From NCBI GenBank assembly GCA_000004985.1, contig GG738933.1: 64,000 nt of DNA. One strand, written 5' to 3'. Below the pieces are notes generated by a model that did no database searches, was not told the DNA's origin, and saw only the letters and a program-made list of their open reading frames with translations. Source of the stretch: Naegleria gruberi (lineage: Eukaryota). A program made the translations under genes and the position numbers. Shown here piece by piece: positions 2,725 through 35,369 of this stretch; position 1 is the first letter of the stretch; each line of letters opens with the position of its first letter.

Positions 2725-3495
2725 CTATTTTCTAAAAACAGGTTTTTCCAGAACTTTGATTTTTGTAATGTGAATTTCTTCCTCTAGCGGATAAATATTT
2801 TCACATCTTGTTCGAATTTCATTGCTCATTCCACATTTGATAGCCATTCGTTCAACAAATTCAAGGATTTTCATTTGGGATATTTTCTTTGAAATGACAT
2901 CTGTCATAACAGTTCTGATTTTCTTGATTTGAGACTTGTTGGCATAGGATGTCTTTTTAAATTGCAAAGCTTTCATTCTTGTGCTTGCTATCATGAATAT
3001 TCTAATCTTGTATCCATCCAAACTCTTAAATTCATGATTCAAAGTGATGGTTGAGTGAAATCGTTTCGTCAAAGTTGCCAATTTATCTTTGGTCAATCTG
3101 AATCCATTAAATTCTGTGTCTGCATGTTGTGGTATCGGAATGTTATTGATCTTCAAGTTTACAATATTATAATTCATTTCCTCTTTGATTGATGGCATAA
3201 TGTCAGGAGCCGAAACTTCCAATGTTCGATTGAGCACTTTTTCAAACGTTGGTGTATGGTTGACAGTTTTTTTCAATTTTTCCTGCAAGTGAATAGTGTG
3301 CTTTGATTCTGTAATTGGTGTCACTAAAGGAGGATAGCTCCCTTGATTAGTGACAGTTGCAAATTCCATATACTTTGATTTTTCATAGCAAAGATATGGT
3401 GACTGGATGAGAAAGTATTGTTTTCTAAATTCAAATTGTGGTAATCTGTGCCTCACTTTCCTTCTAGATAGAAATGCGCTTTTTTTGGCAGGCAT
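2725..3495 (-). CDS. Hypothetical protein, 256 aa.
   Basis: Long ORF with an ATG start in an otherwise AT-rich region; no recognisable domain. Confidence 0.45.
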   Translation of the reverse strand: MPAKKSAFLSRRKVRHRLPQFEFRKQYFLIQSPYLCYEKSKYMEFATVTNQGSYPPLVTPITESKHTIHLQEKLKKTVNHTPTFEKVLNRTLEVSAPDIMPSIKEEMNYNIVNLKINNIPIPQHADTEFNGFRLTKDKLATLTKRFHSTITLNHEFKSLDGYKIRIFMIASTRMKALQFKKTSYANKSQIKKIRTVMTDVISKKISQMKILEFVERMAIKCGMSNEIRTRCENIYPLEEEIHITKIKVLEKPVFRK

Positions 3496-3853
3496 TTTTT
3501 TTTAATCTTCCAGTTCAAATTGCCAGTTTCTAATAATAAATTGAAACCATTTCGTAGTAATGGACGTATTTTCTGAAAATGAAAAGATAGTTTTTCGTTT
3601 GTTGTAATTTCTTATTGAGAACTCAGTAACAAAGATGTCCCTTAATGTTGTTGAGTGGTGAACAATATTCATTTTGCTTGACTTCAATTGATCGAACATG
3701 GTAACTATCGCTGTCACGCGTCAAGAATCTATTTCAAGAAATAATTGTTGACAGAAGAATATTCAAACAAATCACAAAAAAACAAAGCCAACTAACATTC
3801 TCCACAAACCACTTCCAAGATTGGCATGTTTGCATACCATCTAATAACTTCCC

Positions 3854-4315
3854 ATGCCACATCACACAAGACAGGATTTATCCGAATCTTGTGATTCATC
3901 CAATAATAACAATAACTCTTTCATTCCCTTCTATATGAGGGATGATTTACCAACCAACAGACAATCAAAAGCAAGAGTCAACCAGAGAAGAAGAAGAAAA
4001 ACCGTTCAAGATGTTCTCCAACAAAAGGTTTCTGCTTCTCCTTCGAATAATAATAATTTGATATCAGCTGCTGCTGGACCTAATATTCAACATCCTTCCT
4101 CTAATAATATTAATATTAATAATAATTTGAATAATAGTAATGGAGGTTTCTTGTCATCTCTTCAACAACAACAACAGAATAATAATAATAATAATTATAC
4201 ATCATCAACTAATATTCATCATCAACCTCCGTTGGCTCCCAAACCTCCTCAATTATTAAGTAATAATAATAATATTCTAATGGAATTCATTCGGTTGCAA
4301 CAAATACACCACTGA
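3854..4315 (+). CDS. Asn/Gln-rich low-complexity segment, probably the 5' part of the following gene, separated from it by an apparent frameshift.
   Basis: ATG at 3854; poly-N runs. The ORF stops at 4315, while a second frame opens at 4273 and runs into the 4336 ORF. Confidence 0.4.
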   Translation: MPHHTRQDLSESCDSSNNNNNSFIPFYMRDDLPTNRQSKARVNQRRRRKTVQDVLQQKVSASPSNNNNLISAAAGPNIQHPSSNNININNNLNNSNGGFLSSLQQQQQNNNNNNYTSSTNIHHQPPLAPKPPQLLSNNNNILMEFIRLQQIHH

Positions 4316-4335
4316 ATATTCTACCAAAGACTTTA

Positions 4336-6969
4336 ATGCAACAAACAAAACAAATTAATTCTCATCCTCATCCGCACCAACAACAACATCATCATCATGT
4401 ACCAATTCTTCCAAAGCAACAACCTTCCATATCACCTCGACCTCCTCCGACTGCGCATGTTAATCCAAATCAATATCCTCTACCATTCCCTCCTTCTCCC
4501 CTCACCTACCAACACTACTATCAACAACAACAACAATACGCTCTCAATCAAAACAGCAGCAACAATAATCAACAATCCGTAACGACACCTCCTCAAGGCA
4601 TTTTCCCCGCTCAAACTTTTACAGAAATTACAACAAAATTTGGCGGCAGTGTGCAATATAGAAATCGAAAAAGTTTGGGAAGCGAGCAAGAAAAATTGTC
4701 ATCGTCATCTTCCTCCTCGCACTCAGATGTGATTCATCACCATCATCACAACATTAATAGTAGTAGTAACAATTTTAGTGGTGGAGAGAAACAACGAATT
4801 CAATTAGGGCTACATCAACAACAACAACATCATGGAATTATTTCTACGAGTGCTGCCTCGAATAATATTGAAAGTAGTGTGGTAATTATTGGAGAGAGTA
4901 GGAGACCAACAATAGCAAATAGTATAAATAATAATGGAAAGGGTAGTGGAGAGGAAATGTTGATTGATTCAACTCCAACTCCAAAGGTATTTACACCAAG
5001 AACGACGAGTAGTAGCATGGTAAAGAAGGAAGAGCATGAAGGAAAGAAGCCATTGTCAATTTCATCATTTCTCTCTGCTCAATCTGGTAATCCTACGGCT
5101 TCAGCATCATCAGCAAGTAGAGCTCCAACTTCTCCACGTTCCAATTATATTAATGGAGTCAAGACTGTTTCTACAGCAGCTGTTCACAGATTGAAACGTT
5201 TGCAACAACAGATTCGTTCCTCTGATTTGCATGCTATCAACTCATCTGCACAAGTATTGAACTATTTAAAGATGGTACAACAACAGCAACAAGCTTATAT
5301 TCAACAAAGAATGATGCTTCAATCAAGTTCCATTCCTTCCCTGAATATTTCTGTCAATCATATTAAGAATCAATTGTACAATCCTAACTCTGTAACTCCA
5401 TCTTCCACAGCAACAAATGCTGCTGCCAACAATAATTCACAAGAATATTTACCATCTACCTTTATACCTTCCTATCAATTGGATCCAACTGTGGATATGA
5501 TGATTTCTAATTGGGAAAATCAAATCAGACAACGTCAACGACAACAGAAAATGCAAAAGTATAGAGTTCCAAATCTTCGTATTCCTCCACAAGATTTTGC
5601 CTCTAACTTTATGATTGATTCCTCATCGAGTGGAGGAAGCAGTAAGGGATCTCATTCAGATCGTTCTGAAGCTTGGATGAGTGCACGATTTGCAAGCTCC
5701 ACCATCAGTAGTGGAAGAGGAACACTAAGTAGTGGACTGGGAATTTCTCCACTCAATTCACCTAGTTCTTCTTGTGGAACTGTTAGTGACTGTGGTGTGC
5801 ACTATACTGCCGATCCAAATGATCTCATATCACCTAGGATTCAACATCATTCCAGACATAGTCACATGCTCATTACTGCCGAACAATTGTCTCCAGAGGA
5901 TGGAGACAATGATGACGAAGATGATGAGGATGGAGACACACTCATGATTGATGATTCTTCCCCAACAGCTCCTAACAAGGTTCTTCCACCAATTTCTACT
6001 TTGAATTTACCACCACTCAACTTGCTCTCTATTTCTCCTAGTACTGGTGATCATCAACAAGATCATTCTAAGAGTTGTCCAAATTCTGTCTCTAATAGGG
6101 AAAGTGACCAAGGAATTCAAACACTGTTTGGTTCAGGAAGTCACAAATCAGTTCAACCAAATCCAATTTCACTCAACAATACACCACCAGTGAGTCATGG
6201 TACTACATATAGACCAGAAGGATTCATTACACATCGTTCACATCAACAACACTATATCAATAATCATCATTCTAATTTAACATCATCGTCAGGAAAACAA
6301 ATTCATCACCAAGTTCATTCTACCCAACGAAGAGTTGATTCTCAACATGTTGAAAGTTTAATTTCCTCAACCAATGTATGTCCATCTCCAAAACGTTCAA
6401 ACCATCAATATCATCCATATCCTCTCACCAGTCCTAGATCTAAAAAGAAGAAGGTATCCACTCAAGATCAACCAACAGAGATTGAATCTATTTCATTCAA
6501 TTTCCCTCCACCTCCTACTTCAAATCCATCTGAGTCATCATCCAATGAACAAGTTGCCAATCAGGAAGAAATTCAACAACGTATGTCCATGCAACTTTTC
6601 CAAGCCATTTTCAGACATACACCTCTACCAATGTTCATTCTCAATTCCAAGGGTAAATTCATGTCTGTTAATCATGCCTTTGTTAACATGCTAGGTTATA
6701 ATCAAGAGGATCTCTTTTCCAACAAGTTTGCCTCTGAATTTGTTTCGAATGAACACGAATTGATGCAACAAATTCACAAATGCTCACACGAGGGAGGACT
6801 GAACAATGGAGTAGCAAATCAACAACACTATTCATTGTCTTTTAAGGATTATGAAGGATTGGAAATTCAAGCAGAAAATACCATTTACGTTCTCAGAGAT
6901 GTCATGTATGCAGGAGAATTCTTTGTATTCACAGTTACCAACTATCAATCTTCTGCCTCACGTGAATAA
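4336..6969 (+). CDS. Large Gln/His/Ser/Asn-rich protein with a C-terminal PAS-like domain.
   Basis: 877-aa ORF. C-terminal FQAIFRHTPLPMFILNSKGKFMSVNHAFVNMLGYNQEDL reads as a PAS fold; poly-Q, poly-H and poly-S tracts upstream. Confidence 0.55.
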   Translation: MQQTKQINSHPHPHQQQHHHHVPILPKQQPSISPRPPPTAHVNPNQYPLPFPPSPLTYQHYYQQQQQYALNQNSSNNNQQSVTTPPQGIFPAQTFTEITTKFGGSVQYRNRKSLGSEQEKLSSSSSSSHSDVIHHHHHNINSSSNNFSGGEKQRIQLGLHQQQQHHGIISTSAASNNIESSVVIIGESRRPTIANSINNNGKGSGEEMLIDSTPTPKVFTPRTTSSSMVKKEEHEGKKPLSISSFLSAQSGNPTASASSASRAPTSPRSNYINGVKTVSTAAVHRLKRLQQQIRSSDLHAINSSAQVLNYLKMVQQQQQAYIQQRMMLQSSSIPSLNISVNHIKNQLYNPNSVTPSSTATNAAANNNSQEYLPSTFIPSYQLDPTVDMMISNWENQIRQRQRQQKMQKYRVPNLRIPPQDFASNFMIDSSSSGGSSKGSHSDRSEAWMSARFASSTISSGRGTLSSGLGISPLNSPSSSCGTVSDCGVHYTADPNDLISPRIQHHSRHSHMLITAEQLSPEDGDNDDEDDEDGDTLMIDDSSPTAPNKVLPPISTLNLPPLNLLSISPSTGDHQQDHSKSCPNSVSNRESDQGIQTLFGSGSHKSVQPNPISLNNTPPVSHGTTYRPEGFITHRSHQQHYINNHHSNLTSSSGKQIHHQVHSTQRRVDSQHVESLISSTNVCPSPKRSNHQYHPYPLTSPRSKKKKVSTQDQPTEIESISFNFPPPPTSNPSESSSNEQVANQEEIQQRMSMQLFQAIFRHTPLPMFILNSKGKFMSVNHAFVNMLGYNQEDLFSNKFASEFVSNEHELMQQIHKCSHEGGLNNGVANQQHYSLSFKDYEGLEIQAENTIYVLRDVMYAGEFFVFTVTNYQSSASRE

Positions 6970-11941: not shown

Positions 11942-14095
11942 TTAAGGATCTACGTTGGCAGATTTGAAAGAACCCAATAATGGAGATTCGACAAGTTTAG
12001 TTTCACTTAGTTTTCTTTCTAACATTCGAATTTTAGCTTGCATGTTTAGAATAGTTTTTCCACTTTCTCTATTTTCAACTGCCTTTCTCAAATCTTTAAG
12101 GAATGCAATTCTAAACTGTGCTGTCAGTGTCGAATTTGCAGATCCAACAAAAGTTGCAGATAATGGATCTTGAAGTTTCATATTTCTTACACGAATGTCA
12201 GCTCCCAAATCAATTAGTTTCGTACAAATATCCTTTCTTCCAAGTTGTGAAGCTACATGAAGTGGCGTATCACTACTCAAATTCTTTTGATTCATCATGA
12301 CATGAACATCCATAGACGAATCTTCTGACATGTACGAAATGGCTATTTCCAACATTTCAACTCTTCCATAACCAGAAATCCAATGCAACATGTTATTCTT
12401 GTTCTTATCTCTCAAATTGGCAAGTTTTTGTCTATCAGAATAGAAATGATTCAAAATCCATTCGAATATTTGATCACAACCTTGTTTGTTTCCAATAGTT
12501 CTGATGGCAAACCAAATTGGTTCGTTCATGGTGATGGTTGTGTTGGTGGATGGGAAGGTTGGTTTGAAATCATAGTTGGAAATGAGTGATCCCAAAAAGT
12601 CTAATGTCTTTCGGCTAGTTTCTTGCTTGTCAGTACACAATAACATGCACAAGGTCAGTAAATTGTGAACTTCTTCCCGATCTTCCTTTGCTGCACACGA
12701 TGTTGATGGACTTGAAACACCAAAACTTGAATCTAATCCATGTCTATTTCCAAATAAAGCCTTATTAACCATTGGATCAGATGCCTCAATTGAGCTACCA
12801 TTGGAAGATGACATTTTACAAGTGGCATTCATGTTAGCTCCTCGAGAAATCAAGAAGTGAGCAATATCAAAGTGACCTCTCAATATAGCCAAATGTAAAG
12901 CACTTGGAAAATCTCTACGTGATTGAGTTTCTGATTCTCTTGCTTCAACATCAACTTTGACTTCATCAATTAGATATTTGACAACATTGAATGCACCACC
13001 GAGAACTGCACTTGTCAATGGAGTATGATAATAATTATCCACATGAAGATTAACATCAATATTTGACTTTTCCAGCATTTTCTTGACGAGATGTAATCTG
13101 TTATATTTACAGGCATAGTTAATGAGAGAAACTCCTTGGTGGGTGATTCTGGCAAGTTGATCACCAGTGAGACCCATCTTGTCAAAGATGAAATCCATGC
13201 ACTTGTCGTTTAATTCTTGCTCCTTTTGGACAGTTTCGAATGATTTGGACGAAAGGGAATTATGAGGTGTACTTGTAATGATTAATTTGAACATTAACAA
13301 GTACATGTTCTTCTTACATCTTGGATCGAGATTTTCATGTTGGAGAGAAATGACACTAGATTCGTATTGAGTTTCGTATTCGTCTTGTAATCGAATAAGT
13401 TCTCTAAATAATTCTTCACTTTCATTGAAGAAACAGGCTGTGTGAATTGGTTGTAAACCTCTTGAATTGGTTCCAAAAAGGGATTTCTTGACAAGATCTT
13501 TGACTGATGGCATTTCTTCTGATTTGAGAGTTTCTAATTTTTGTAAAGATTCGATTAATGATTTGAGGATTTTAGATTCTGCATTTGGAGTTTCACAAAG
13601 CAAGTGAACAATATTACCATCATCAAGATAACTTGACAAGCCTTTGATCATTATTGGAAAACATGAATATTCTGTATAAATTTGCAAGTACTGATTATTC
13701 GAAAGGTAATACGAAAGTCCACTACAATCATTCTCATCAAAATAATCTCTCAGCCTCTCTGTCATCTTTTTGGTAACATATCTTTCATCCAAATTCAAAG
13801 CATACGAAGGATTAGTCTCCAAAAAAACATCAATCATCTGTTTGACAGTCTTATTAAACGAAAGGTTTGAATTCGGCAATTGTTCACCAGTTGTTGGATT
13901 AGTCTGACGTCTAACTAACCATTCTTCAATAGCCTCTCTTTCAAAAGTATCACCAAGAGCAGTGACAACTGGATCACACATTATTCTTCTCGTAATTGGA
14001 CAATATATCAAATCTTTGATTGGATTCGAATCTGTTTGTTGCTGACCAAGTGATGGACTATTCATTCCTAAAGCAGGGCTGTTGCGATTTGACAT
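11942..14095 (-). CDS. U-box E3 ligase-like protein with ankyrin repeats. The track start is GTG; the first ATG (MSNRNSP...) is at 14095.
   Basis: U-box signature DLIYCPITRRIMCDPVVTALGDTFEREAIEEWL. Several ankyrin repeats, for example TPLHVASQLGRKDICTKLIDLGADIRVRN. Confidence 0.75.
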   Translation of the reverse strand: MSNRNSPALGMNSPSLGQQQTDSNPIKDLIYCPITRRIMCDPVVTALGDTFEREAIEEWLVRRQTNPTTGEQLPNSNLSFNKTVKQMIDVFLETNPSYALNLDERYVTKKMTERLRDYFDENDCSGLSYYLSNNQYLQIYTEYSCFPIMIKGLSSYLDDGNIVHLLCETPNAESKILKSLIESLQKLETLKSEEMPSVKDLVKKSLFGTNSRGLQPIHTACFFNESEELFRELIRLQDEYETQYESSVISLQHENLDPRCKKNMYLLMFKLIITSTPHNSLSSKSFETVQKEQELNDKCMDFIFDKMGLTGDQLARITHQGVSLINYACKYNRLHLVKKMLEKSNIDVNLHVDNYYHTPLTSAVLGGAFNVVKYLIDEVKVDVEARESETQSRRDFPSALHLAILRGHFDIAHFLISRGANMNATCKMSSSNGSSIEASDPMVNKALFGNRHGLDSSFGVSSPSTSCAAKEDREEVHNLLTLCMLLCTDKQETSRKTLDFLGSLISNYDFKPTFPSTNTTITMNEPIWFAIRTIGNKQGCDQIFEWILNHFYSDRQKLANLRDKNKNNMLHWISGYGRVEMLEIAISYMSEDSSMDVHVMMNQKNLSSDTPLHVASQLGRKDICTKLIDLGADIRVRNMKLQDPLSATFVGSANSTLTAQFRIAFLKDLRKAVENRESGKTILNMQAKIRMLERKLSETKLVESPLLGSFKSANVDP

Positions 14096-14420
14096 TCTTT
14101 GTGTTGTTTTTTTTGTGTCGATTAATTTGATTAACAGCTGACAGTTCCTTACCACTCATTATTTATAACAAACACACAAACAGTTGCAGTTAGCATGAAA
14201 AACGCTCGATGATGTGCTTGTGCAAACAAGTTTAAGTGGCAAGTAGAAAATGTGATGGAGAATTGAGAAGGTTGCCCTTTAAGGCAATAACAATTTTGGC
14301 GGGAAAGTTTGATGTGAGGTGAAGTGTTTGCCTAGACAAAATGTATTGAGGTGCGTCGAGTTGTTTCTTGTTGATTTTAAAAGGCTTGTTAGAGGTGGGT
14401 ATCTATCAGAAATCAAAGAT

Positions 14421-20712: not shown

Positions 20713-21330
20713 ATGCTTCGTTTTGCAAATCCAATAATAACAATTTCAACTCCTTCGAATTCACGAACGAATCCAGTCATTCAGTTAGCTCCTGGATCGA
20801 CTCTTTCGAATAATCAGCCGCAAATTTCTAATGAACAAATTGCCATGATCAATGCATTGGGTAATTATACAGGTGAATCTGAGGAGAAATGTCTTCGTTA
20901 TTTGATCTTTTTTGGTTGGAACTTTGAGTTGGCATATAAGGCAACTGTTTTATTGAGCCAAGAGCTGTGTGAAAGAACCAAATTGTCTAATTTGTTTCTT
21001 GCGAGAAGAATTTTAGAAGAAGCACAATTTGATGTGACGTTGTGTCATCAGCGAATGGAATTAGTCTTGTATTTGATGAATAGAACTAATTTGGTTCATG
21101 TATTTGCCTATGATTGCTTGCAACAATATCAATGGAATATCAACAGTGCTTTACAACGAGTTTTTGAGTTGGCTTCCATGAATAGATTACCTTCTCATGC
21201 ATTTTCAACAATTCCTAATTTGCAAGTGCAACAACAATCGAATAACAATCAACCAGATTCTGCCAGATCACTGCTTGCTCTTCAAACTGCTTACCATAAC
21301 CAATCGAGACACAATTTATTTAAATTGTAA
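20713..21330 (+). CDS. Protein with two UBA-like / TAP-C-like helical modules.
   Basis: EQIAMINALGNYTGESEEKCLRYLIFFGWNFELAYKATVLL and a second similar segment; weak, from motif memory. Confidence 0.45.
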   Translation: MLRFANPIITISTPSNSRTNPVIQLAPGSTLSNNQPQISNEQIAMINALGNYTGESEEKCLRYLIFFGWNFELAYKATVLLSQELCERTKLSNLFLARRILEEAQFDVTLCHQRMELVLYLMNRTNLVHVFAYDCLQQYQWNINSALQRVFELASMNRLPSHAFSTIPNLQVQQQSNNNQPDSARSLLALQTAYHNQSRHNLFKL

Positions 21331-23838: not shown

Positions 23839-25015
23839 TTACAAATTGAAAGATAATCTTTCCCATTCACCAACAGCACTTCTATTGACAACAATATCTC
23901 CACTTGGTTCCACACAAACATAGGTATTATGTTCAGATTTCAATGCAATAGCTCCATTTCCATGCAATTCAACACTAAATTGTTCCCAAGGTCCAACAGC
24001 ATCACGATTAGCAACCAACAAACCACTTGGTTCAGCACACATCAATTTACCATGAGCAGATCTGAATGCATTCTTTCCAGCTCCATGATGTTCAACAGTG
24101 AATTGTTCCCAAGGACCAACTGCATCACGATTGGCAACCATTGAATGATTTGATTCAGCACACAACAATTTACCATGATGATGTCTCAATGAAATGCTCT
24201 GATTTGGAGCCAATGAAAATTGGAACTGTTCCCAAGGTCCCAAAGCATCTCTATTAGCAATAACTAATCCAGATGGCTCAGCACACAAGAATTTACCATG
24301 AGCTGATTTGAATGCCACTTGATTTCCAGATTGAACCAATGAGAAAGTTTCCCACGGACCCAAAGCATCTCTATTGGCAATAATTTCACCACTTGGTTCA
24401 GCACACATGAATTTTCCATGAGCTGATTTGAATGCATAATCATTTCCAGAAATGTGAATCAAAGTCATTGCTTCCCAAGCTCCACTGGCATCACGATTGG
24501 CGACAACTTGACCACTTGGTTCGATACAGAAGTATTTGGAATGACAAGATCTGAGATTGGCCAATAGGGAACGATGTTTGGCTGAGTGGATAGTGTAGGA
24601 TCCATGTGGACCAGAATAATTGGTTCCTGGATAGGACATGCCACCTCCAGTGACGAAAAGATAGACATTGATAAAGTCGGAGAGGGAAATGGACTTGCTC
24701 TTGGCATGATCAACGAGTTTAAATAAGAATCTAATGAAATTTTGATTATTCGAAAGTAAACTATTTCTGTACTTACTTGATTTCTTCCTTGGCGAGACCA
24801 ATATCTTGAGCAGCTTTCTTCCATTCCTTCTTATTCATGGAATTGGAGTGATCCTTGTCGTATTGTTGGAAAGTAGATTGTGCTTGAGAGATGAGTTGTT
24901 GATCTTGACCATGTTGAGGCTAAAGTAGAGTAAACTAGACGAAAGTATGAGAATGCGTACTTACAATTTGGAAACCAGAAGGTGCCCATGATGGTTGTTG
25001 TCCTTGATACCACAT
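23839..25015 (-). CDS. EF-hand protein with six hisactophilin/fascin-like beta-trefoil repeats (two trefoils). About 3 exons; the junctions of the 5' exons (24802..25015) are uncertain.
   Basis: Exon 1 MWYQGQQPSWAPSGFQI ends at a GTAAGT donor. An EF-loop DKDHSNSMNKKE lies in exon 2. Six repeats of ANRDA.GPWE.F......AFKSAHGK.C.AEPSG, compared with hisactophilin AFKSHHGHFLSAE. Confidence 0.6.
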
Positions 25016-25253: not shown

Positions 25254-27923
25254 TTAGAATTTGAATGGAACAACAGTTTTGTTACTATAAGTCTTGATAG
25301 GTAATTGAGGATAAAGTGTTAAATCTGTTGTTGAATCTCCTTCTTGTTCAATGACAAGTCGTTTAACTTTTAAAATTTTCAAATTAGTTTCCAAATCCGA
25401 AAGTGGAAATTCGTCTGATAATAGATCAAATAGTCTCTCCTTGGATATTCCTTTTTGAGTTGTTTCCTTCTTCTTAATTTTGTAAATAGTTTGAATTATT
25501 CTAGTTTCGATTAAATTTTCCACAAAATTCGAATTCCTATATTCGTAATCCAGATAGGCATCTTGATACTTTTCATAACAATTCAATCGTTTCAAACATG
25601 ATAGACAGAGCGTATTAGTACTTGGATTAAAATTATCTTTTGTAATTTCCTTATTTTCCAAATATTGAATAATAAAATGTCCATTACAATCATTAATTAT
25701 TCTTTGTTTCCTTAATAGTAAAGAATTGAATGGAGAATAAAAGTAAGTAGAACAGTATTGGCAGCGTACAATGCTAAATTTGCAAACTAAATGTCCATAT
25801 GAATATTTAGATTTCACAAGATTTTGATTTTCTGGTAGAATTTGAAATAAATCTGAAGGTCTTTTCATAAATTCATATTCGTCAAGTTTCAATCGTTTGA
25901 GAATATCTGCTTCTGCTTCTGCTTCTTGTTCTGGTTCAAAGTTAAGAGATTGGTTACATTTTCTGCGTGATTGTTCCTTGACAGTAAATAGAATGCCATT
26001 TGTCAAACATTTTTCCACAAATTGAAAGGAAACACTCTTCAATACGACAGGATAAAGCAAATTGGATTCATCTATATCTTTCGAATTGTAGGCGTCTGGA
26101 ATATATCCTTCATTACCCTTCACAAATAATTCAACCAATGGATTATTTCCCATTATGATACCTTCAGTTTGAATTCGGTTTGCATATTTATCAATGAGTG
26201 ACTTTCGAATTCTTTCCACAATAAAATCACAATGCATTGCGTGAAAGAGAGGATGAAAGGAATCAGCAACAATGGTTAAGAAACCTCTTTTTCCATATTT
26301 CAAAGCTCTTTCGTGGTGGACTTCACTGGTTCCTCCTGATTCTCTATTGATGAAATTAATCTTATACTTGAGAGATCGCAAACATTCCAAAACTGTCAAT
26401 ATTCTCTCGCCATCATACACAAGTTTACAACAATCCAAATCAAAAAATAAAAGTAACTCCTCAATGGTCTCATAGTTCAGTAATACTATTTGAATATTTG
26501 CATTTCCTTCTTGGCAAATATTAATAGAAGCTTTGGAGCTCATCATATTGTACTTTAAATGTGAGGTTTTCTCTTCCAATTTCAATAAAACTTGTTTGAT
26601 TGCTTGACTGATAACCTCTGCCGATTCTCCATTATTAATGACAAATAAATCAAAATCACTGAAACCACAACCTGTCAATGTGTGAAGTAGAGATCCTCCT
26701 GAAATGACAAAACGTTCTCTTGTCTTGGTAGTTTTGTTATGTTCAAATGCACATTCATAGAATAAAATTCTAGCCAATTCGTAATCTTTCAAAATTTCAT
26801 TCTTGAATCGATGTTGAAAATCTGAAAATGTCATTTCATATGGATTCTTGAAAAATCTCACAATTCTTTCACATTTTGTGGCATTTGGACTTGTTTCTTT
26901 ATCCATATAATAATGATAATCACGAGCACGGTTGTTAAATTCGTATGAATATTCCAACATATTTGGAAGGATTACACAATCTACTTTTGGCAACCCAGAA
27001 ACCACATTATACCATGGTTTTTTATCAAAGTTCATAAATGAGCATCTTCTCTTGACCAATTCATCGAAAGTGAGATAATAAGTGTCTGGTTGAGTAAATA
27101 TTCCATAGGGAAATACTGGAATGGCTTCTTCCTGTATTTTAATAATCTCTTCAAATTCCTTATTCGAAAAAATTTTCGCCTCCTCAATGGCCTGTGAATT
27201 GATCGCATCAATCATTGGATCTCCCACCTTAAATGTTCTAAATTTCAAATGGTCATGAAAATACCTCACTGGCCACTTGACAGTACTCTTCATCCTAAAA
27301 TATTGATCATAGGTCATCATGACATTCTCATTCGAATCCTGATGATAAACTAAACTCTCATTCCAACACGGTTCTCGTACCGTATTGGAGAATAAATCCA
27401 CCAATCGATTCACATTCCTAATATCCCTTCTCTTATTGAGAATATCAATTCTTAATCTTTCAATACTTTCTCCATAAACTCGATCAAACAAATCATAAAC
27501 TCCACGACAAGTCTGAATGAAATTAAACAATGCATACTTGTCCATATAAAACATCAAATCGAGTAGAATTTCAGATGGAAGTAATTTGATTAAATTTCGA
27601 TTCGGATTTTGAAATTCTCTCAAAACATTTTGTCCATTATTTTCAACAAGTGAATTTTCATGACGATTTCCTGACCATGAATAAATATCTCGTTGTTTTC
27701 TTCTCTTTTCGTATCTATCACAAAAGTATGGATTTACAAGATTTTTAGAGGAAATTGATTCGGGTTGAATTTGATCGAATGTGAAAGTTGTGAATTCGTC
27801 GTTTTGGTTAGTGTCGAAACTTGGAACTAACAAGGCAACGGGTTGAGGTCCTCGAGGAGAATCGTAAAAGTTATTGGAAAGTGTGGCAGTTTCTAATAGA
27901 ATATCATCCCATGATCGTTTCAT
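25254..27923 (-). CDS. F-box protein, 889 aa, with a Pol-beta-type nucleotidyltransferase core motif and a C-terminal Cys-rich region.
   Basis: F-box LLPSEILLDLMFYMDKYALFNFIQTCRGVYDLF. NTase signature ISGGSLLHTLTGCGFSDFDLFVI (G[GS]-x10-SDhDh) plus a downstream acidic FFDLDCCK. C-terminal CKFSIVRCQYC...CNGH...CLSCLKRLNC. Confidence 0.6.
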   Translation of the reverse strand: MKRSWDDILLETATLSNNFYDSPRGPQPVALLVPSFDTNQNDEFTTFTFDQIQPESISSKNLVNPYFCDRYEKRRKQRDIYSWSGNRHENSLVENNGQNVLREFQNPNRNLIKLLPSEILLDLMFYMDKYALFNFIQTCRGVYDLFDRVYGESIERLRIDILNKRRDIRNVNRLVDLFSNTVREPCWNESLVYHQDSNENVMMTYDQYFRMKSTVKWPVRYFHDHLKFRTFKVGDPMIDAINSQAIEEAKIFSNKEFEEIIKIQEEAIPVFPYGIFTQPDTYYLTFDELVKRRCSFMNFDKKPWYNVVSGLPKVDCVILPNMLEYSYEFNNRARDYHYYMDKETSPNATKCERIVRFFKNPYEMTFSDFQHRFKNEILKDYELARILFYECAFEHNKTTKTRERFVISGGSLLHTLTGCGFSDFDLFVINNGESAEVISQAIKQVLLKLEEKTSHLKYNMMSSKASINICQEGNANIQIVLLNYETIEELLLFFDLDCCKLVYDGERILTVLECLRSLKYKINFINRESGGTSEVHHERALKYGKRGFLTIVADSFHPLFHAMHCDFIVERIRKSLIDKYANRIQTEGIIMGNNPLVELFVKGNEGYIPDAYNSKDIDESNLLYPVVLKSVSFQFVEKCLTNGILFTVKEQSRRKCNQSLNFEPEQEAEAEADILKRLKLDEYEFMKRPSDLFQILPENQNLVKSKYSYGHLVCKFSIVRCQYCSTYFYSPFNSLLLRKQRIINDCNGHFIIQYLENKEITKDNFNPSTNTLCLSCLKRLNCYEKYQDAYLDYEYRNSNFVENLIETRIIQTIYKIKKKETTQKGISKERLFDLLSDEFPLSDLETNLKILKVKRLVIEQEGDSTTDLTLYPQLPIKTYSNKTVVPFKF

Positions 27924-33113: not shown

Positions 33114-35369
33114 ATGCAATCAGAGCCTTTAACGTATCAATTTTTTAATCAGTGCATTGATCTGCGGAGGGAGGATGATAAATTCTTCATGATTGATCTT
33201 TCCGATGCCGATAATATTGTTAAACGATTGGTCTTTAATATTATTGACAATAATGTGGAGACTGGATATTCGGTTGAACATTTGGTGTGGGATTGGGAGA
33301 GTGATTTGATGAATCAATTGTTGGATGGAACGAAGAGACCTATCAGAGCTTCTGCTAGGTATATAACCATGAAGAATAGATGTTGTTCTGGAGAGTATTG
33401 TCATTTCATGTGGAATGGTGTCGAAACATTTGATGAAATGTTACTTTCTCCAGTGCCAAAAGCTAATGAGAAGGGATCTGCATTTGTTGGTGATGGTGAA
33501 TTATTGATGATTTCCACAAGTGAAGTTCCATTTATTGAGAGAGGAAAGAGCAAAATTTTCACAATGGAGAAATGTACTGAGGTGCCAAGTGTCACATATA
33601 ACACGACTGATTTTTGCACTGTTATTACCATTCCATGCAGTAATGTTTTGGAACGAGATTATTCATTGACTGCCTTTTATGCAAGTTCAAATGTTTTTTT
33701 ATTTGATTTGAAGAGTGACAAGTTTTCAACTACACCAATTCAATTCATTCATCCAGACAATTTATTTTACTTTAAAGAGGCATTTATTGAATCATGCATT
33801 GTTCCATACTTGGAGGGGAGTAGAATGAGAGTTTTTGTTTGCCAAAAAGAAAGATTATTTGAATTAGTTTGGTCTGGAGAGGAATTTAAAAGTCCACTAC
33901 AAATGATTAGACATTTAGAATTTGTCCAATCAGTGTTTTCTATTACAAGGATGGACAATATTGGTCTTTTAGTTAGATCTAAAGATATTAATCAGAAAAT
34001 TCAATATCATATCTATGAACCAGAACTATACAACTCCAATCAATCTCAGAAGGAAGGTATTTGGAGATTTATCACAAATGTTGATGGAAATCTCTCCTCA
34101 TATCTGTATGCTCCAAAATCAAAATCACTTGTCTATAGGAAGGGCATTGAGTATACCAAATATTTATCGTTTGAGGAAATTATGAAAATGCCTTCTAATA
34201 GAATTAGAGAAGTTTTTGATGAAGAGAATTTTGAAAAATTCAAAGAATACGATGCCTCATTTAATGTTTACACACCACGTTGTAAAAGTAAAGCCATTGA
34301 AAAGGTTACCTTTGTTAAACCAAACCAGAGAATCAATGAGGCCTATCAAATCAAATTAGAACATATAGACCATATTGAAATAGTTGCAGGAATTAATTGT
34401 AAGGAGTTTGCGGAGAAACTTGGACAATTTATTTCAAAGGACTATGTGGAATTGACTCCAACAGACTTGGCTGATTATCTTGGAGCTCCATTAGTCTACC
34501 TCCATAAATGGGGAGGAAATAATTTAAGTCATGAATACTTTATTAGAGACATGCAATATCACAAAAGAACTAGCTCAGTTATTGAGCTAGGTAAATGTTT
34601 AAATGGGGGACTAGGAGGAAGTACAACAGACATTTCAAATCTCACATTCCTTGGAATCGTACAAGGTAAGCCATTTGATAGTTCTGAGGAGGATAATGCA
34701 GTTGAAGAAGAAGAAGAAGCTGAATATCAACAATTGTTTAAAAATACGCAATTTCGAATGGAGTCCAATACAATGCTCGCTACTGATCCCTTCCTTTCGG
34801 ATGGTGGCGTTTATTTTGAAAATGTAAGGGAAGGTCTGTGGCAATGGAATACCACAAACAAGCAACAGGGTTATTGTGATGGCGGATATTTCGACCCTAA
34901 TGTTACTGCTCAATTTGTTGCTGTACACACTGATTATTTGCATCTACTCAATACATCAAATATTTGGCTAATACCCAAAGATAGAACTGAAGAGTATGGT
35001 GGTGAGTATAACAGAAATGAATACCTTAATTATGAGATGGAGGGAGGATGGTTCCAAATGAGGTTGGGTGTTTCCTCAGATTGTGCAGTTGTTGGTCTAT
35101 TTGACCAAAAGTATTTTAATGATGAGAATGTTTTACCTGCCAGTAAGGTTAGACAAAAAAGTCTTCTCGAAGCTAATTTCAAGTTATGCTATGAACCTCC
35201 ATACCAAGAATATCTCACAAAGAAAATGGAGGAAGAAGGATTTCCTGATAAAATGGAAATGCCTTATGGTATCATTACATCATCAGGTTATGGAGATGGC
35301 TATTATCCAACATTGTTCAAAAAATCAGAGAAGGGAGATGTGATTGCTGTCAAGATATTCTTTGCTTAA
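33114..35369 (+). CDS. Hypothetical 751-aa protein. The C-terminal roughly 170 aa may be DUF4241-like (GDGYYP motif). It starts 58 bp after the ABCG stop.
   Basis: Long ORF with an ATG start. C-terminal CAVVGLFDQKYFND...GIITSSGYGDGYYPTLFKKSEKGDVIAVKIFF resembles the DUF4241 consensus recalled from memory; not searched. Confidence 0.5.
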   Translation: MQSEPLTYQFFNQCIDLRREDDKFFMIDLSDADNIVKRLVFNIIDNNVETGYSVEHLVWDWESDLMNQLLDGTKRPIRASARYITMKNRCCSGEYCHFMWNGVETFDEMLLSPVPKANEKGSAFVGDGELLMISTSEVPFIERGKSKIFTMEKCTEVPSVTYNTTDFCTVITIPCSNVLERDYSLTAFYASSNVFLFDLKSDKFSTTPIQFIHPDNLFYFKEAFIESCIVPYLEGSRMRVFVCQKERLFELVWSGEEFKSPLQMIRHLEFVQSVFSITRMDNIGLLVRSKDINQKIQYHIYEPELYNSNQSQKEGIWRFITNVDGNLSSYLYAPKSKSLVYRKGIEYTKYLSFEEIMKMPSNRIREVFDEENFEKFKEYDASFNVYTPRCKSKAIEKVTFVKPNQRINEAYQIKLEHIDHIEIVAGINCKEFAEKLGQFISKDYVELTPTDLADYLGAPLVYLHKWGGNNLSHEYFIRDMQYHKRTSSVIELGKCLNGGLGGSTTDISNLTFLGIVQGKPFDSSEEDNAVEEEEEAEYQQLFKNTQFRMESNTMLATDPFLSDGGVYFENVREGLWQWNTTNKQQGYCDGGYFDPNVTAQFVAVHTDYLHLLNTSNIWLIPKDRTEEYGGEYNRNEYLNYEMEGGWFQMRLGVSSDCAVVGLFDQKYFNDENVLPASKVRQKSLLEANFKLCYEPPYQEYLTKKMEEEGFPDKMEMPYGIITSSGYGDGYYPTLFKKSEKGDVIAVKIFFA

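Follow-up and report, generated by a model that had tools for sequence, protein, structure and literature searches.

An F-box protein of Naegleria gruberi with a predicted nucleotidyltransferase domain of the Gad2 family

Introduction

The Gabija anti-defence protein 2 (Gad2) is encoded by Bacillus phage SPbetaL7, and knockout of its gene makes this phage susceptible to Gabija. An AlphaFold prediction indicated that Gad2 is a nucleotidyltransferase, and about 170 homologs were reported in phages and prophages (bioRxiv 10.1101/2023.05.01.538930). We describe here a gene of the amoeba-flagellate Naegleria gruberi whose product, NAEGRDRAFT_60034, combines a predicted F-box with a domain of the same family. 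The gene lies on the minus strand at positions 25254..27923 of a 64,000-nucleotide stretch of contig GG738933.1 (assembly GCA_000004985.1), hereafter called the window.

Another closely related system is that of the Pandoravirus "cluster 7" proteins (e.g., A0A2U7UAG2), in which a BTB domain is fused to a nucleotidyltransferase described as class-II-like. In these viral proteins, motif A was reported together with a Gln conserved close to the site of the third carboxylate; RRD is replaced by F-D, EDxxR is lacking, and basic residues are conserved further downstream. The authors, who cited class II CCA enzymes needing only two carboxylates, proposed a role in tRNA maturation and made no family link to Gad2 (bioRxiv 10.1101/2023.12.02.569716). 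In the class II enzymes themselves, the RRD of motif B serves in ribose recognition and the EDxxR of motif D acts as the template for the base (PMC2910056).

The Nucleotidyltransferase Core

The open reading frame (ORF) was open throughout and encoded 889 amino acids followed by a stop codon. Its product showed 100% identity over 100% coverage with NAEGRDRAFT_60034, labelled "F-box domain-containing protein" in UniRef. This identity places the gene in a heterolobosean and rules out an origin in a dictyostelid. The precomputed assignments placed this protein and all of its homologs in Pfam family PF26128 (PF26128.2), which is Gad2. The protein is organized, from its N-terminus, into a disordered segment, an F-box, a clade-specific linker, the Gad2-family nucleotidyltransferase, a helical region with CxxC...CxxC and a small tail. 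A first-pass annotation, made by a model from the letters and the ORF translations, had claimed an F-box located N-terminal to a Pol-beta-type nucleotidyltransferase fold. Both parts of this claim were borne out, by the fold model of the core on the one hand and, on the other, by an ortholog profile and predicted helices for the F-box, whose Pfam match was below the cut-off. The gene and the elements of the predicted catalytic domain are as follows.

25254..27923, minus strand: complete ORF, NAEGRDRAFT_60034 (ORF call, full-length identity, PF26128)
26178..26864, minus strand: Gad2-family (PF26128) Pol-beta nucleotidyltransferase domain, residues 354-582
26637..26711, minus strand: motif A, residues 405-429, FVISGGSLLHTLTGCGFSDFDLFVI, with G409, G410, D423 and D425
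26472..26498, minus strand: strand NIQIVLLNY, residues 476-484, with Q478; position 482 is L
26409..26465, minus strand: motif-B-like segment IEELLLFFDLDCCKLVYDG, residues 487-505, with F494, D495, D497, C499, D504 and G505
26280..26309, minus strand: basic/aromatic helix of the neck, RALKYGKRGF, residues 539-548, with R539, K542, Y543, R546 and G547

The core (residues 340-650) was modelled with AlphaFold2 from a 32-sequence alignment, and the predicted local distance difference test (pLDDT) score exceeded 90 over residues 370-520 approximately. A Foldseek search with the full-length model placed the CCA enzyme of T. maritima at the top, and nearly all of the matches were chains with a nucleotidyltransferase fold; the structural neighbours included the non-catalytic folds of NF45/NF90 and RsfS. 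Within the model, motif A is laid out as a strand (405-408), the GG pair, a helix (410-417) and a second strand (423-429) opening with DFD, which is the canonical geometry of this motif and the position that had been proposed for the G-G-S...D-x-D signature. Residues 407-429 (ISGGSLLHTLTGCGFSDFDLFVI, 26637..26705) contain ISGGS-x10-SDFDLF, which conforms to hG[GS]x9-13Dh[DE]h on a strand-turn-helix-strand unit, and the minimal alpha/beta fold of the Pol-beta nucleotidyltransferase superfamily is present. The model therefore shows a predicted Pol-beta nucleotidyltransferase fold which is nearest to the head-neck domains of the class II enzymes (CCA-adding enzymes and bacterial poly(A) polymerases). 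Judged from 200 shuffles, the ORF translations of one window should contain some 0.6 chance occurrences of the relaxed motif G[GS]x9-13Dh[DE]h, so that the motif by itself is no evidence; that it is real is indicated by the predicted fold and the homology. Sequence searches of the PDB with the whole protein and with the core profile returned only chance matches to designed proteins and one ABC transporter, and an NCBIfam match to LEU3_arch was spurious (14.6 bits for a cut-off of 409.8).

Residue conservation was counted over 181 family domains at or below 50% identity. The GG loop was nearly invariant, with G409 in 164 of the 165 ungapped domains and G410 in 163, and so was the DxD pair (D423 in 174 of 174 and D425 in 173 of 174 ungapped). 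Position 408 was A in 152 domains and S in 10, and F427 was found in 158. On the strand preceding motif B, position 478 was Q in 163 domains and D in 10, and position 482 was R in 136, K in 15 and L in 8. The motif-B-like segment showed D495 in 175 of 176 ungapped domains and F494 in 173, followed by D497 (140), C499 (141), D504 (157) and G505 (166). Further downstream, N523 was present in 157 domains, Y536 in 121, R539 in 170, K542 and Y543 in 168 each, and R546 and G547 in 159 each. The Naegleria protein keeps all of these residues except R482, replaced by L, and Y536, replaced by H; position 408 is S. As the alignment shows, neither the GG loop nor the DxD pair has been lost from its core; in this superfamily they hold the triphosphate of the NTP and the Mg2+ ions. 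The conserved Q478 is the family's candidate for the role of the third carboxylate.

Relationship with Phage Gad2

The Gad2 gene (WIT28108.1; OQ921347.1, 109563-110765, annotated "Gad2") was used for comparison, SPbetaL7 having been located through its synteny with phi3T. A hidden Markov model (HMM) built from the 181 domains, which are mostly eukaryotic or metagenomic, matched SPbetaL7 Gad2 with 36.0 bits (pairwise E = 2.3e-13), and the match extended from motif A to the R..KY helix (profile positions 40-222). An 8-sequence profile aligned with Gad2 at E = 1.1e-4 in HHalign, and two PHROGs, 1614 ("nucleotidyltransferase") and 4400, were matched by both the Naegleria core and Gad2. The Naegleria core is therefore shown, by these profile comparisons, to be homologous to the phage protein and to belong to its family. 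Without a profile, the pairwise similarity of the two proteins was marginal, and a tblastn search of the INPHARED phages with the Naegleria core or with a short family member gave no match.

Both are predicted nucleotidyltransferases and have in common AGG, DxDx[FY], the Q-h-I strand, FDxxxC, xD, N and R..KY; the motif-B-like segment of Gad2 reads FNTFDFTVCMGAFD. They differ in that Gad2 is a stand-alone phage protein of 400 amino acids with an anti-Gabija phenotype, whereas the Naegleria protein is eukaryotic, more than twice as long and alone in possessing the F-box, the clade-specific linker, the putative zinc-ribbon and the tail. We know of no Gabija counterpart in Naegleria. Anti-Gabija activity is a phenotype of the phage protein and not a plausible role in a eukaryote.

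Comparison with Class II Enzymes

The family profile aligned with E. coli Cca/PcnB over 169 columns (E = 5.9e-4, HHalign). Motif A of E. coli Cca, GGAVRDALLGLPVKDRD, has exactly the same spacing between GG and DxD as the Naegleria protein. The segment IEELLLFFDLDCCKLVYDG aligned with motif B of Cca, LEDDLKRRDLTINALAQDD, FFD replacing RRD, and EVHHERALKYGKRGF aligned with motif D and the helix that follows it. At the site of EDxxR, which is absent, E and D aligned with G-T and the template Arg with H536. The string FFDLDCCK (residues 493-500, 26424..26447) is present as the first-pass annotation had noted, 70 residues after DFD and not about 50; its FFDLD had been taken as a third acidic catalytic cluster and, since it aligns with motif B, corresponds to the motif-B aspartate and not to a third metal ligand. 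The class II CCA and poly(A) enzymes possess tRNA-binding body and tail domains, which the Naegleria protein lacks. The non-canonical poly(A) polymerases TENT5/FAM46, which retain the third carboxylate, showed no sequence-level match and a structural match weaker than that of class II.

The F-box

27438..27593, minus strand: F-box and linker helix, residues 111-162, LIKLLPSEILLDLMFYMDKYALFNFIQTCRGVYDLFDRVYGESIERLRIDIL (Pfam, ortholog profile, predicted helices)

The F-box string quoted in the first-pass annotation corresponded to residues 114-146 (27486..27584). The F-box has an LLPSEIL motif, in agreement with an LPxE start, and the model showed helices at 111-114, 117-125 and 129-138 and a long one at 140-162 (pLDDT 55-78). 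In other family members, the F-box matches reached E = 4.9e-5 and 6.2e-9. A profile of 11 orthologous F-box segments gave marginal best matches in the PDB: Fbxw7 (0.028), the F-box of Legionella AnkB (0.047) and FBXO42 (0.16). Of the 183 family proteins retrieved, at least 25 contained this F-box-plus-linker module, which ends with RLxYLN. We accept the predicted F-box as real but divergent, from the ortholog profile and the modelled helices together. F-box proteins with an enzyme domain are known, among them the JmjC demethylases KDM2/FBXL10-11 and the F-box helicase Fbh1. Like the Naegleria protein with its predicted nucleotidyltransferase, they associate an F-box with a catalytic domain and not with one that serves for interaction alone, but their catalytic folds are unrelated to it.

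Size of the Family and Partner Domains

An exhaustive search with the family profile retrieved 6789 clusters at 50% identity with E<=1e-3, and 2359 with E<=1e-10. Named members came from N. gruberi, N. fowleri, N. lovaniensis, Willaertia magna, Acrasis kona, a basidiomycete, a green alga and one Patescibacteria metagenome-assembled genome (P0087). In BFVD, 134 viral structural matches were found at E<=1e-3. Most were proteins of giant viruses with an ankyrin, BTB or VWFA annotation, and the rest included viral CCA/poly(A) enzymes and some phage proteins; Pandoravirus proteins were among the 134. The scan of IMG/VR found only one contig, of giant-virus size. Members of the family are frequent in giant viruses and, among eukaryotes, in heteroloboseans, fungi and algae.

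The Pfam partners among 140 representatives were a short-chain dehydrogenase (SDR, adh_short) in 14, BTB_2 in 11, ankyrin in five and the F-box in several; WD40, PARP with WGR and PBZ, and AAA_33 were found once each. The PARP representative, from the P0106-P0173 set, carried the PARP catalytic and regulatory domains as well as WGR and PBZ, and another member of this set associated the Gad2 domain with the AAA_33 P-loop domain. A sister heterolobosean clade (NAEGRDRAFT_58420, N. fowleri FDP41_009726 and a Willaertia protein) contained an F-box, the Gad2 domain and an SDR, and an Acrasis kona protein an F-box and the Gad2 domain. This sister clade, with its association of F-box, nucleotidyltransferase and short-chain dehydrogenase, comprised proteins from Heterolobosea and from metagenomes (P0037, P0174, P0036, P0038, P0049), with adh_short in 14 of the 72 top representatives. 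In this branch at least, the SDR fusion hints at a chemistry directed at small molecules or ribose.

The closest relative outside Naegleria, P0007, is a 433-amino-acid protein composed of an F-box, the nucleotidyltransferase and a terminal CxxC...CxxC; its gene (3396-4697) lies on the eukaryote-like Logan contig SRR22388282_110963 and adjoins Myb, ubiquitin and Snf7 genes.

The Pandoravirus proteins resemble the Naegleria protein in the position of the E3 adaptor, N-terminal to the same type of nucleotidyltransferase, and in an equal motif spacing. They differ in that their adaptor is a viral BTB domain of the Cul3 type, whereas that of Naegleria is a cellular F-box of the Skp1/Cul1 type. Since F-box fusions, BTB fusions and the BTB-fused Pandoravirus members are all found, the predicted pairing of an E3 adaptor with a Gad2-type nucleotidyltransferase is recurrent and not a one-off. 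The first-pass annotation had called the combination unusual, which does not agree with these frequencies. In the literature available to us, our search found no F-box-nucleotidyltransferase fusion, including in Naegleria, nothing under the locus tags, and no paper that connects Gad2 with F-box fusions or with the expansion of the family in eukaryotes and giant viruses. What is already known is that the protein is an annotated hypothetical protein within a Pfam family and that viral proteins with a BTB fusion have been described from computation. What is gained here is therefore an interpretation, and neither the fold nor the system is new.

Possible Function and Alternative Explanations

The interpretation that we favour, and consider reasonably probable, is that the protein is a nucleotidyltransferase tethered to the Skp1-Cul1-F-box (SCF) ubiquitin ligase, probably active, and acting on an acceptor other than those of class II. 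In this model, the domain would bind NTP-Mg2+ and transfer a nucleoside monophosphate (NMP) to a hydroxyl acceptor. The acceptor would differ from the tRNA and mRNA ends used by class II enzymes, and the nucleotide specificity from that of the CCA and poly(A) enzymes; a different specificity is suggested by the change of RRD into FFD, by the lack of EDxxR and by a neighbouring Gln in place of the third carboxylate. The acceptor could be the 3' end of an RNA or DNA, a protein or a small molecule. The F-box would dock the enzyme on Skp1-Cul1. The transferase might then work at the ubiquitin ligase, be delivered there with its bound target, or be itself turned over. The putative zinc-ribbon and the tail could plausibly assist acceptor binding.

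Several observations weigh against this interpretation. The F-box scored below the gathering threshold in the Pfam scan, with E = 0.0047 and 17.2 bits for PF00646 (cut-off 20.5) and 14.3 bits for PF12937 (cut-off 24.3). No conserved acidic residue was found in strands 458-484 of the family that could be the third catalytic carboxylate, and in the profile alignment both the motif-B Arg and the EDxxR template were absent. The alignment with Cca/PcnB had an HHalign probability of only 29%, a consequence of a template profile made from two sequences. Among the five closest relatives, the change at R482 was common to all and Y536 was replaced by H or N; R482 and Q478 occupy one face of the same strand, and the loss of the two residues in the subclade could mean that the activity is altered or lost. 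Finally, the mechanism of Gad2 itself was "yet to be elucidated" in February 2026 (PMC12904381).

The main alternative, distinctly less probable but to be taken seriously, is that of a pseudo-enzyme. The dead nucleotidyltransferase fold would be a receptor of the SCF ligase for a substrate or a ligand (nucleotide or RNA), comparable to WD40, LRR or Kelch domains. Substrate receptors normally sit C-terminal to the F-box, as this domain does, and the losses of the motif B arginines, of the EDxxR template, of the third carboxylate and of the family-conserved R482 and Y536 speak for a dead fold, as do the non-catalytic NF45/NF90 and RsfS among the structural neighbours. However, this protein has kept D423, D425, the GG loop, Q478 and D495, as have nearly all of the 181 divergent domains and also the paralogs with 40-64% identity. 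To our knowledge, pseudo-nucleotidyltransferases have typically lost these residues. Judged by residue conservation, an enzyme is favoured over a non-catalytic receptor.

Two other explanations appear very unlikely. The first is that of a signalling nucleotidyltransferase, of the cGAS/CD-NTase, OAS or Mab-21 type, producing a second messenger under SCF control, which the first-pass annotation had put first. The Pfam families suggested by the first-pass annotation (NTP_transf_2, Mab-21, OAS1_C and PAP_assoc) gave no match at E up to 10, and the Naegleria protein had no match in PADLOC (CBASS and similar systems). Neither a profile match nor the closest structural similarity was to cGAS/DncV-like, OAS or Mab-21 proteins, and the alignment of motif B and of the neck was specifically class-II-like. 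The second is that of a genuine class II tRNA CCA-adding enzyme or poly(A) polymerase (PF01743, PolyA_pol) bearing an F-box. It would agree with class II enzymes being the best structural matches and with the tRNA maturation proposed for the BTB-fused viral relatives. Yet PF01743 matched neither the Naegleria protein (E up to 10) nor any of 32 members (E<=0.1), and it was absent from the families listed for 140 more (E<=0.001); moreover, the protein lacks RRD and EDxxR, on which the recognition of ribose and base depends in those enzymes (PMC2910056). As for a chance motif in a spurious ORF, the short motif alone would indeed be frequent enough, but this explanation has a negligible probability and was refuted by the full-length identity, the family size and the fold matches, the 889-amino-acid ORF having a confident fold, thousands of homologs, conserved paralogs and orthologs in three Naegleria species and, in Willaertia and Acrasis, relatives that also carry the F-box.

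A broader proposal goes beyond the SCF-tethered enzyme that we favour, and we put it forward as a speculation with rather little chance of being right in full. The Gad2-type nucleotidyltransferases would not mainly be a phage device against Gabija but effectors of conflict or regulation, forming an ancient family of very large size. In protists and giant viruses, they would be wired systematically to adaptors of cullin-RING ligases (F-box, BTB) and to other targeting modules (ankyrin, WD40, VWFA and PARP domains). The Naegleria enzyme, coupled to SCF, would nucleotidylate a nucleic-acid end or a protein, either marking it for ubiquitin-dependent handling or protecting it from it. If this is true, the acceptor of the Naegleria protein would also reveal how Gad2 disarms Gabija. 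The Gad2 family is in any case far larger than the number of phage homologs first reported. The F-box-tethered eukaryotic member offers another, independent way of approaching the target of the enzyme, and the partner domains (SCF, Cul3-BTB, SDR, PARP) constrain the hypotheses. For Naegleria, the protein is a candidate for connecting the SCF pathway with nucleotidyl transfer.

Other Regions of the Protein

27594..27923, minus strand: N-terminal region, residues 1-110, predicted disordered (pLDDT 30-42), variable and gapped in the paralog alignment
26865..27437, minus strand: linker region, residues 163-353, with invariant columns among six Naegleria-clade proteins
26223..26255, minus strand: His/Cys-rich loop HPLFHAMHCDF, residues 557-567
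25596..25763, minus strand: putative zinc-ribbon, residues 721-776 (C721-x2-C724...C773-x2-C776)
25257..25508, minus strand: C-terminal tail, residues 806-889, possible winged helix

Most members of the clade (P0001, P0002, P0003, P0005, P0006, P0007) start with MKR. The linker region contains the motifs MxTYDxYF, WPxxYF, PYG, DTYYLTF, VKR and DYHxY, conserved in the six Naegleria-clade proteins; the model had low confidence there and zero Pfam matches were found. The Cys/His-rich segment announced by the first-pass annotation is present as the loop at 557-567, and a CxxC...CxxC pair (721-724 and 773-776) is present as well. In the loop, H557, P558, L559, H561, M563, H564, D566 and F567 were invariant across the six proteins, and the pLDDT was low. 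The four Cys of residues 721-776 were invariant in six paralogs, and P0007 likewise terminates in CKKC...CNEC. Short strands at 718-720 and 727-729 (pLDDT 74-90) lie inside a moderately confident helical region (630-800). We consider this segment as a putative zinc-ribbon, which would bind a metal.

The tail was modelled as helices 828-838 and 841-850 followed by strands 855-859 and 865-872, with a pLDDT below 50. This helix-helix-strand-strand pattern is compatible with a possible winged helix, as had been suggested; a sequence match to the PDB or to Pfam, in contrast, was not found for residues 806-889. The paralog alignment showed the tail only in P0001-P0003. One of these, the N. gruberi paralog P0003 (1374 amino acids), has kept the F-box and the nucleotidyltransferase core, and C-terminal RGS (E = 3.6e-9) and START-like domains have been added.

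Neighbouring Genes

A scan of the window with the family HMM found one copy only of the Gad2 domain. The immediate downstream neighbour (23839..24801, minus strand) encodes 320 amino acids made of repeated fascin/FRG1-like beta-trefoil units, with an ANRDAxGPWE repeat (Pfam FRG1, E = 3.7e-33; Fascin, E = 7.6e-25). A small ORF at 20713..21330 (plus strand) contains a TAP_C/UBA-like domain (E = 1.6e-16). The segment 14471..19836 (minus strand), some 5 kb away from the F-box gene, is a retrotransposon copy, with adjoining ORFs of 546 and 1242 amino acids, the larger of which has RVT_1 (E = 2.9e-26) and RNase H domains. At about 11 kb, 11942..14155 (minus strand) encodes a protein with a U-box and ankyrin repeats, which is an E3 ligase of another type and has no Gad2 domain. 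On the plus strand, the 751-amino-acid ORF at 33114..35369 ends in DUF4241 (E = 8.5e-23).

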